Assembly: GCA_004321885.1 (NCBI GenBank)
Contig: SCQK01000025.1
Span: 1-1,382, forward strand
DNA length: 1,382 nt
Direction of reading: 5' to 3'
From: Patescibacteria group bacterium
GTDB taxonomy: Bacteria; Patescibacteriota; Patescibacteriia; Magasanikbacterales; GWA2-37-8
Each line of letters opens with the position of its first letter. Within the stretch, counting starts at the first letter, position 1. Position numbers and translations under genes: made by a program. Shown here piece by piece: positions 1 to 1,382 of this stretch. Under the pieces are notes generated by a model. That model had not been told where the DNA came from, made no database searches, and saw only the letters and a list, made by a program, of their open reading frames with translations.

Positions 1-25
1 GAGGTCTTGTCAAGAGGTGTGCAAA
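1..25. repeat. Terminal inverted repeat at the transposase-distal end (IRR relative to transposase orientation). It contains an outward-facing TTGACA on the minus strand.
   Basis: Bases 1-25 match the reverse complement of 1358-1382 at 20 of 25 positions. The five mismatches are at aligned positions 4, 6, 8, 9 and 14. Possible weaker extension to about position 31. Confidence 0.7.
8..13 (-). promoter_or_regulatory. Outward-facing consensus -35 hexamer (TTGACA) inside the terminal repeat, 7 bp from the element tip. It is a candidate half of a junction or hybrid promoter.
   Basis: Plus strand 8-13 is tgtcaa, so the minus strand reads TTGACA. It is followed on the minus strand by agacctc and then the element end. 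It is a sequence motif only, with no expression data. Confidence 0.4.
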
Positions 26-31
26 AAGAAG

Positions 32-1276
32 TCAGGCGGCCACCCTCCACTCCTGCTCCATGACACGGACGCCATCGACGAATGCGGCGCCGTGATAGAC
101 CTCTGTCAACAGCTCCGAGGCGTGCAGTCGCTGGAAGCGTTGCTGGGCGACCAGCAACATCTTCCAAATGACCGCCGTGGCGTTGTCGACCTTCTTGAAC
201 CGCCTCGCCGCATCGGTCCGCAGCCGCAAGGCGGCAAAGGGCGACTCAATCGGATTACTGGTACGCAGATGCACCCAGTGTTCCCTGGGAAACGAGTAGA
301 AGGTCAGCATCCGGTCCCAGTCTCGATCGAGCACGGCAGCGGCCGCCTCCAGCCCCTGCTGCCGGCACCAGCGCTGATAGCCCGCCTTCCGCTGCTCCGC
401 GTCTTGCTGTGTCGGGGCATACGGGATCTCGGTCAGCAGGCGCCGGGCCTCGGCTTGGCGCGTCTTCGGCACCTTGTCGAGGGCATTGAGAATCTTATGG
501 TTCCAGCACCGCTGCTCCTGGGCGTCGGGGTAGACGTTGCGCAGGCCCGCCCAGATCCCCAGGTGTCCATCGCCCACGACCAGCTTCGGCGTCGTCAGCC
601 CGCGCGCCTTCAGGTCCCGCAGGACGTCCGACCAGCTCTCGGTCGATTCCCGATGTCCGGGGACGACGGCCACGAGTTCCTTGCGCCCGTCACGCAAGGC
701 GGCCAAGACGACCAGGACCGCCGCCTTCTCTTTCTCGAGTCCGGCCTTGACATAGACCCCGTCCACCCAGAGGTAGACGACCTGGAGGTCGGCCAGAGGG
801 CGGCTCGCCCACTGCGCGTACTCCGCGTGCCACCGCTCCTTCAGGCGCGCGACGGTCGTGGTCGACAGCGGGGCGTCGTCCCCCAGCAGCCCACGCAGGG
901 CCAGATCGAAGTCGCCCAGCGCGAGGCCGTGGAGGTAGAGCTCAGGGAGCAGGGCACTGACCTCCGGTGTGCGCCGTGCGAACAGCGGCATCAGGCGACT
1001 GGCGAAGCGCTGCGCCAGGCCGCGGACGCGAGGCCGTCGGAGCGTGACCGTGCCATTACTCAGCGTCAACCGCCGTGGCTTGCCGTATCCGCTGCGGTAG
1101 CCGGGCGCACTATCGACGGCCGGTCTCCGCTCAGACTTCCGGCGGCCCAGCAGGTCGTCCACTTCGGCGTCCAGCAGCTCTTGCAGCCACTTCCGCATCT
1201 TGTTCCGGACCCAGGCTTCCAGGTGCTCCCATGTTACCCTTGACTCGGCGGTCGGTTCTGTGGTCTGCTTCTTCAT
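32..1276 (-). CDS. IS256-family (Mutator-like) DDE transposase, 414 aa
   Basis: The ORF runs from an ATG (complement of 1274-1276) to a TGA (complement of 32-34). Third-position GC is very high, consistent with genuine coding in a GC-rich genome. Recognisable IS256-family blocks are YLWVDGVYVK (D172, codon 761-763), LVVGDGHLG (D236, codon 569-571), the CWNH CxxH motif (residues 257-260) immediately after the second D, and TSNPIESPFAALRLRTD (E344, codon 245-247). The D-64-D-108-E spacing closely matches the IS256 triad spacing (D167/D233/E341). A strong Shine-Dalgarno sequence lies upstream. Confidence 0.93.
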   Translation of the reverse strand: MKKQTTEPTAESRVTWEHLEAWVRNKMRKWLQELLDAEVDDLLGRRKSERRPAVDSAPGYRSGYGKPRRLTLSNGTVTLRRPRVRGLAQRFASRLMPLFARRTPEVSALLPELYLHGLALGDFDLALRGLLGDDAPLSTTTVARLKERWHAEYAQWASRPLADLQVVYLWVDGVYVKAGLEKEKAAVLVVLAALRDGRKELVAVVPGHRESTESWSDVLRDLKARGLTTPKLVVGDGHLGIWAGLRNVYPDAQEQRCWNHKILNALDKVPKTRQAEARRLLTEIPYAPTQQDAEQRKAGYQRWCRQQGLEAAAAVLDRDWDRMLTFYSFPREHWVHLRTSNPIESPFAALRLRTDAARRFKKVDNATAVIWKMLLVAQQRFQRLHASELLTEVYHGAAFVDGVRVMEQEWRVAA

Positions 1277-1284
1277 GGCGGTGT

Positions 1285-1290
1285 CCTCCT
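1285..1290 (-). promoter_or_regulatory. Shine-Dalgarno ribosome-binding site for the transposase
   Basis: The minus strand reads GAGAGGAGGACACCGCC-ATG. AGGAGG (complement of cctcct at 1285-1290) lies 8 nt upstream of the ATG at 1276. Confidence 0.7.
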
Positions 1291-1357
1291 CTCGTTGACC
1301 GGGTGTCTGCCCGGTGGGTTAGAATGTCACCCGAGAGGGTACACCGCCTTTCTCCTA

Positions 1358-1382
1358 TTTGCACACCTTTTGAATATAGCTC
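1358..1382. repeat. Terminal inverted repeat at the transposase-proximal end (IRL relative to transposase orientation). It contains an inward-facing TATATT on the minus strand.
   Basis: The reverse complement of 1358-1382 (gagctatattcaaaaggtgtgcaaa) pairs with 1-25. The conserved inner core is GGTGTGCAAA. Confidence 0.7.
1373..1378 (-). promoter_or_regulatory. Inward-facing -10-like hexamer (TATATT) inside the terminal repeat, 4 bp from the element tip and oriented toward the transposase start.
   Basis: Plus strand 1373-1378 is aatata, so the minus strand reads TATATT. It is preceded on the minus strand by gagc, which is the element terminus. No in-element -35 partner is present, so it needs an upstream -35 supplied by flanking DNA or by the other end of the element. 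Confidence 0.4.

Follow-up and report, generated by a model that had tools for sequence, protein, structure and literature searches.

A right-end TTGACA hexamer as the probable -35 half of a split junction promoter in an IS256-family insertion sequence

Analysis of a 1382-bp stretch of DNA (hereafter the window, meaning the whole stretch that was analyzed) revealed a complete IS256-family insertion sequence, without flanking DNA, that carries a perfect outward-directed TTGACA close to its right tip. This hexamer is probably the -35 half of a split promoter that would be formed at the junction of the two ends when the element circularizes. Split junction promoters have been reported before in the IS256 family. 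The hexamer is best read as belonging to a circuit by which the element regulates itself, in which transposase would be supplied only from the excised circle, and not as a device for activating host genes. The feature is real, conserved and functional-looking, yet it is of a known kind in a known family.

The assignment of the element to the IS256 family is based on its gene, its size and its ends. Its transposase gene (32..1276, minus strand) is of the IS256-family (Mutator-type DDE) class by Pfam, NCBIfam and structural homology. The 414-aa product matches Pfam PF00872 (Transposase_mut) with E = 8.8e-54, scores 280.5 bits on NCBIfam NF033543 (IS256 family, cut-off 150), and is homologous to the ISCth4 TnpA structure 6xg8 (E = 1.2e-30). 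The long ORF on the plus strand is the antisense shadow of this minus-strand ORF. The compact size of 1382 bp and the presence of a single ORF agree with the ~1.2–1.5 kb of family members, as do the terminal repeats, which are expected to be imperfect and ~20–40 bp in length. In the window these are 39 nt each, with positions 1-39 pairing with 1344-1382 at 77% complementarity. The subterminal TGTAAA-type motif described for IS256-family ends (PMC7780238) is represented by GTGTGCAAA in the window and by GTGTGTAAA or GTGTGGAAA in its relatives. At the right end of one relative on a metagenome contig (L139), this subterminal motif was locally duplicated (CTTCTTTTTGCACACATCTTTTTGCACACCTCTTGACATGACCTC).

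Position 1 is a true element tip, as the termini of relatives coincide with it and have the same GAG...CTC bases. Target duplications of 8–9 bp were found around 53 of 77 complete relatives (e.g., GCCGGCCA at L002 and CAGCTACG at L201). Because the end at position 1 lies past the transposase stop codon (32-34), it is the right inverted repeat (IRR, 1..39, minus strand), and the end at position 1382 is the left inverted repeat (IRL, 1344..1382, minus strand), which is located 5' of the transposase gene.

The outward -35 hexamer occupies positions 13..8 of the minus strand (IRR positions 8-13), where the plus strand reads TGTCAA, and it is separated from the terminus by the 7 bp of bases 1..7 (GAGGTCT). 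An earlier note on this DNA had placed a perfect outward TTGACA at this site, 7 bp from the tip, and direct reading confirmed that placement. The note had also calculated that a -10 hexamer starting 9–11 bp into the flanking DNA would leave a spacer of 16–18 bp, and that arithmetic is correct. A point absent from the earlier note is that the hexamer is co-oriented with the transposase gene. 

TTGACA occurs three times in the window, relative to an expectation of 0.33 on both strands, and none of 200 shuffled sequences contained three. The other two exact copies fall within the coding sequence of the transposase, one on the minus strand (104-109) and one on the plus strand (747-752), and a consensus scan found no -10 partner for either. 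That these two copies have no apparent role lends something to the view that the right-end hexamer is likewise a functionless chance occurrence. We consider there to be next to no chance that this view is right, and it is refuted by comparative data, in that the conservation is position-specific across 14 lineages while adjacent positions vary, and only 0.33 occurrences are expected per window.

The comparative data were obtained from several sets of relatives. Among 81 copies that were retrieved via the transposase, not via the repeat, the right-end hexamer was TTGACA in 68 and differed from it by a single base in the others (GTGACA in 10, TTGGCA in one and TTGACG in one). The ten copies in which GTGACA replaces TTGACA were from related Acidobacteriota metagenome-assembled genomes (MAGs). 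When lineages instead of copies were counted, 14 of the 17 that had been anchored on the transposase had TTGAC at this right-end position, at protein identities as low as 35–42%. In these 14 lineages, which range from 81% to 35% amino acid identity and take in Acidobacteriota, Methylomirabilis, Chloroflexi, Spirochaetia, Deinococcota, Actinomycetota, Gamma- and Betaproteobacteria, IRR positions 9-13 are invariant GTCAA (corresponding to TTGAC), while the neighboring positions 7 and 14 vary. The right inverted repeat thus has what is expected of a promoter of the Pjunc type at this end, namely a conserved outward -35 hexamer.

The corresponding feature of the left end is an inward-directed -10-like hexamer, located in the IRL 5' of the transposase gene as in Pjunc-type promoters. 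Read in the orientation of the transposase gene, the left end is GAGC-TATATT-CAAAAGGTGTGCAAA, in which TATATT (1378..1373, minus strand, IRL positions 5-10) matches five of the six bases of TATAAT and points into the transposase gene. We propose that it is the -10 half of the junction promoter. Its conservation was assessed in 27 distinct IRL variants, which had been retrieved through the right end and are thus unbiased for the left end. TA at positions 5-6 together with T at position 10 was found in 25 of the 27 variants, with the exceptions being TATAAC and one indel variant. Positions 7-9 are free to vary, and the hexamers included TACCAT, TATATT, TATCAT, TACAAT, TAGGCT, TAAACT, TAATTT, TATGAT, TATAAT and TAAGGT, among others. 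By lineage, A6 and T10 of the IRL were invariant in about 13–14 lineages and positions 7-9 were variable, giving the pattern TAnnnT. The left end of the window also has an outward TTGAAT (4/6 of a -35) at 1366-1371 on the plus strand, 7 bp from the tip. This sequence is unconserved, with relatives having CTGATG at that location.

Comparison of the two ends revealed which of these bases are particular to one end. Position 6, which is A in the IRL, is variable in the IRR (C in 7/14 lineages and A in 5/14), and the IRL varies at positions 9 and 13, unlike the IRR. As the same transposase should bind both ends, bases that are fixed at one end alone suggest an end-specific function. Not all of the conserved bases are of this type, however. 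T5, T10 and the TCA at positions 10-12 are common to both ends and may be transposase contacts, so the strictly end-specific signal is small. It consists of A6 in the IRL, which provides the -11 A of the left-end hexamer, and of G9 and A13 in the IRR, which complete the right-end -35.

The same observations bear on another explanation for the right-end hexamer, which is that it is conserved only for recognition of the right end by the transposase, or for discrimination of the donor from the recipient end, with its likeness to a -35 being coincidental. The extreme conservation of the right-end tip, whose 21 nt (CACACCTYTTGACAWGACCTC) were found in more than 120 metagenome contigs, is in keeping with a role in recognition, as is the TCA that both ends have in common. 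In ISCth4 the transposase HTH domain contacts bp 7-11, and copy-out/paste-in transposition needs an asymmetric use of the ends (PMC7780238). This explanation is nevertheless unlikely in our assessment. The end-specific bases are exactly those that complete TTGAC in the IRR and the -11 A in the IRL, and the combined offsets of the two hexamers from their tips (7 + 4) match the 5–7 bp bridges measured in the family. In addition, the ISCth4 hexamers are located at positions with no transposase contacts or with backbone contacts only (PMC7780238), and the coincidence would need to have recurred in lineages as distant from one another as Vibrio, Streptomyces and Acidobacteriota.

The reading that we favor is that of a -35 and a -10 brought together at a circle junction. 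IS256-family transposition proceeds by copy-out/paste-in, and the circle that forms along the way has a few flank-derived bases between the two ends of the element (PMC7780238). One end attacks the flanking DNA slightly beyond the other end, by a few bases, which generates a circle or a tandem dimer in which the IRR and IRL abut across a short bridge. In the orientation of the transposase gene, the abutted ends read TTGACA-AGACCTC-(bridge N)-GAGC-TATATT, with a spacer of 11 + N. Bridges of 5, 6 or 7 bp, which are lengths reported for IS256 and ISCth4, give spacers of 16, 17 and 18 bp, respectively. The joined ends would thereby constitute a near-consensus sigma-70 promoter (6/6 and 5/6) firing into the transposase gene, with a predicted transcript start near IRL nucleotide 17 (about position 1365 of the window). 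What this analysis shows directly is the two hexamers with their positions, the conservation that is specific to each end, and the arithmetic of the spacing. That the junction is transcribed in this element is what we infer.

Such a promoter would be active only while the element is excised. In the integrated copy its halves diverge, with 1.3 kb between them, and the -35 half would face host DNA, where a complete promoter would result only if the flank chanced to supply a -10. A consensus scan of the whole element found no complete sigma-70-like promoter inside it, a result in keeping with the common arrangement in which the resident promoter is weak and the junction promoter strong. Weak resident candidates noted by eye, such as GTGCAA-17-TACCCT, were not adopted. 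No natural IRR-bridge-IRL junction was present in 201 related loci or in a viral contig collection, and the bridge length for this element is consequently taken from its relatives. The transposition pathway is likewise drawn from the literature on relatives. Circle bridges are 5, 6, 7 and 19 bp in IS256 and 6–8 bp in ISCth4, and ISCth4 junction mimics integrate best when the bridge is 6 bp (PMC7780238). IS256 is also listed in a review among the families that use transient junction promoters (PMC9330008).

The closest parallel to the window is ISCth4 of Clostridium thermocellum (Kosek et al. 2021, PMC7780238), whose transposase is homologous and which has its -35 on the right and its -10 on the left. 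The ISCth4 -35, TTTACA, is located at bp 6-11 of the R-TIR and its -10, TAAAAT, at bp 8-13 of the L-TIR, from which a promoter would be assembled across a 5–6 bp spacer, and both hexamers sit where the transposase makes no base-specific contacts (PMC7780238). As in the window, most differences between the two ISCth4 repeats fall in their first 14 bp. The subterminal motif is of the TGTAAA type in ISCth4, TGCAAA in the window and TGTAAA in the relatives of the window, and the 8-bp target duplications of ISCth4 resemble those of these relatives (8–9 bp). The two elements differ in the positions of the hexamers (6-11 and 8-13 in ISCth4, 8-13 and 5-10 in the window), in the hexamers themselves (TTTACA/TAAAAT versus TTGACA/TATATT) and in the fixed part of the spacer (12 bp versus 11 bp). 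They also differ in their hosts, with ISCth4 being from a low-GC Firmicute and the window element from a GC-rich environmental lineage. The junction chemistry of ISCth4 has been reconstituted in vitro, whereas the element in the window is known here from its sequence alone.

The proposal also resembles the Pjunc promoters of IS911 and IS2 (both of the IS3 family), IS30, IS21 and IS1111, in which the -35 is in the IRR and the -10 is in the IRL. These elements differ from the window in having transposases of other families and shorter bridges (about 3 bp in IS911, 1–2 bp in IS2 and 2 bp in IS30), which puts their hexamers at different distances from the tips. The Pjunc promoters of all five are strong only in a circle or tandem dimer, which couples the supply of transposase to the excised intermediate (PMC7780238, PMC9330008).

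Among annotated elements of cultured bacteria, the closest relative of the window is that encoding WP_013156567.1 on plasmid pMESIL01 of Allomeiothermus silvanus (NC_014213.1), with 72% nucleotide and 64% amino acid identity. Like the window, this element has its IRR hexamer (TTGACG) 7 bp from the tip and its IRL hexamer (TACCAT) at positions 5-10, and it has an 8-bp target duplication, CAGCTACG. Unlike the window, it has one mismatch in the -35 and a weaker -10 (4/6).

To more distant IS256-family members, at 35–42% amino acid identity, we extended the comparison of the outward IRR hexamer at positions 8-13 and the inward IRL hexamer at positions 5-10. The same geometry was kept in Providencia (TTGACC in the IRR and TATAGT in the IRL), Streptomyces (TTGACA and AATGCT), Paraburkholderia (TTGACG and TAAAGT), Vibrio ISVa19 (TTGACA and TATGCT) and Rhodococcus (TTGACT and AATGAT). 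Three alphaproteobacterial lineages (L203, L208 and L209), from plasmids of Cereibacter (TCAGCC and TATGGC), Bradyrhizobium (TTGGCG and TATCGC) and Methylobacterium (ISMex3; TCCTGC and TATGCG), had near-symmetric tips (GAGCTATG/CG...). At the two sites neither a -35 nor a TAnnnT hexamer was found in these three lineages, and there was no match to the promoter consensus. That both hexamers are missing from them indicates that the split promoter is lineage-specific and not obligatory for the IS256 family.

An outward -35 at a tip can, in principle, also serve the DNA into which the element inserts. The right-end -35 of IS256 and of other families is documented to form promoters with host -10 sequences (PMC9330008, PMC7780238), and a right end in which an outward -35 remains can, as a secondary effect, give rise to fusion promoters that use -10 boxes of the host (PMC9330008). 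In IS256 of staphylococci and enterococci, which is of the same family as the window element and forms circles with 5–7 bp bridges, the outward -35 joins with host -10 sequences, and whether the spacer is 17 or 18 bp determines the strength of these hybrid promoters (PMC9330008). The activation of llm and mecA by IS256 was experimental (Maki & Murakami 1997, as cited in PMC7780238 and PMC9330008). The earlier note had proposed a similar activation of adjacent genes by the window element. Such activation is possible, given its documentation in IS256 and other families, but in the flanks of relatives the promoters it calls for were at chance level.

Neither the sequence nor the orientation of the flanking DNA departed from background. 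From 191 right-end tips of relatives we obtained 177 unique flanks, and TAnnnT at a spacer of 16–18 bp, which the note had looked to as a sign of hybrid promoters, was present in six of these (3.4%). The background, from three-offset windows elsewhere in the same flanks, was 2.5% (sd 1.5%, maximum 6.2%), so there was no enrichment. The expectation that genes would be oriented away from the right end was also not borne out, with 71 co-directional and 55 convergent ORFs (p = 0.18) by a crude call that used the longest ORF adjoining the right end. We conclude from the flank statistics that host hybrid promoters arise at about the rate of chance. Unlike the situation for IS256 at llm and mecA, the evidence here being that of sequence, suitable host -10 boxes occur near relatives of the window at chance frequency.

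One good instance of an apparent IS-host hybrid promoter was observed among the relatives. In L109 (1-200) and L086, which have the same flank, TTGACA is followed after 17 bp by TATTAT, and the sequence continues with AAGGAG and the start codon (ATG) of an intact ORF for a Wzy_C-domain (O-antigen ligase-like) protein of 541 aa. This junction is a plausible candidate for a natural IS-host hybrid promoter.

Five metagenome contigs (L089, L123, L155, L175 and L188) were observed to contain only a remnant of the right end, ~33 nt in length, in which TTGACA is intact. In all five it precedes the same conserved downstream sequence, with an ankyrin-like ORF located ~150 nt further on. Their upstream sides differ, with a tRNA gene present on that side in L175 and L188. 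No canonical -10 was found at 16–18 bp from the remnant in the five contigs. This set was found through the hexamer itself and is biased by that search pattern. The remnant could represent a fossil end that has been retained in a lineage.

The ideal arrangement before the intact Wzy_C gene, the persistence of a remnant with intact TTGACA before a conserved locus, and the documented activation by IS256 (llm, mecA) and many other families are what speaks for the idea that the outward -35 has been kept because hybrid promoters activate neighboring genes, to the benefit of host and element. We regard this idea as very unlikely. In addition to the flank counts and the lack of an orientation bias, it leaves the conserved inward -10 of the other end unexplained, and its remnant case is affected by the search bias described above and has no canonical -10 at 16–18 bp. 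Host-gene activation fails to explain the presence of the right-end hexamer. Its -10 partner, conserved and at the correct position, is found in the left end of the element itself, an arrangement that indicates a circle-junction promoter. Activation of neighbors would be an occasional, chance-level by-product, involving about 3% of insertions in relatives.

The mirror case, in which a host -35 completes the -10 of the IRL, was found in one of 105 unique left-end flanks, compared to 5.2 (sd 2.5) at control offsets. This depletion is weak and non-significant, and selection against insertions that activate the transposase could conceivably be its cause.

Additional control of the transposase may be exerted by the 5' leader of its mRNA (1277..1348, minus strand), for which a structure is predicted by folding and has comparative support. 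The predicted fold has an energy of -43.6 kcal/mol (z = -4.5), and the helix formed by GGCGGUGU and ACACCGCC ends immediately upstream of the AUG. In this fold an anti-Shine-Dalgarno sequence, CCCUCUC, pairs with GAGAGG of the Shine-Dalgarno region, and the ribosome-binding site is buried. The closing helix was preserved in 18 diverged relatives, in which four of its 12 pairs showed compensatory changes, and an Rfam search with the leader structure matched no family. As the modeled structure buries the ribosome-binding site, translation of the junction mRNA may be damped by the leader, such that high transcription need not give high translation. The leader may thus count against a simple picture in which transposase supply follows from a strong junction promoter.

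A broader reading would join these elements of the analysis, with the 7 + 4 geometry being ancestral and selected, with the junction promoter and leader acting together, and with some fossil right ends having been domesticated. Under it the geometry would mark a very large, mostly uncultured branch of IS256 in at least seven phyla, with loss in the alphaproteobacterial lineages. Transcription from the circle only and leader-gated translation would constitute a two-layer switch, and the solo remnant before the ankyrin-like gene in five contigs would be part of a host promoter. Taken as a whole we hold this reading to be quite improbable.

The split promoter also provides a simple annotation signature, which consists of TTGAC at right-end positions 9-13 and TAnnnT at left-end positions 5-10. 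This signature orients and delimits members of a widespread environmental branch of IS256 and predicts a circle bridge of 5–7 bp. The only points that are mildly new are that the split promoter recurs broadly, with a fixed geometry, in many uncultured phyla, that alphaproteobacterial lineages lack it, and that a conserved leader sequesters the ribosome-binding site.

The element in the window was itself distinct from those in the collections that we searched. A look-up of the exact transposase protein returned no record, and in the genome, metagenome and plasmid collections no match to the element exceeded 81% identity. The best relatives, at 81% identity, were in a Methylomirabilis MAG, an uncultured bacterium and several metagenome contigs, and a scan of genomes by protein likewise gave a best match of 81% amino acid identity. 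The metagenome contigs matching the right-end tip were all ≤81% identical overall, among the matches listed. The best plasmid match was the IS256-family element of Allomeiothermus silvanus, at 72% nucleotide identity. A search of viral contigs by protein identified one truncated relative, in which TTGACA is likewise 7 bp from the tip. The family itself is very abundant, and the complete chromosome of one Acidobacteriota MAG (OZ240092.1, 5.75 Mb) has about 45 near-identical copies (L013-L071) of a relative with 66% amino acid identity, indicating a recent burst of transposition.
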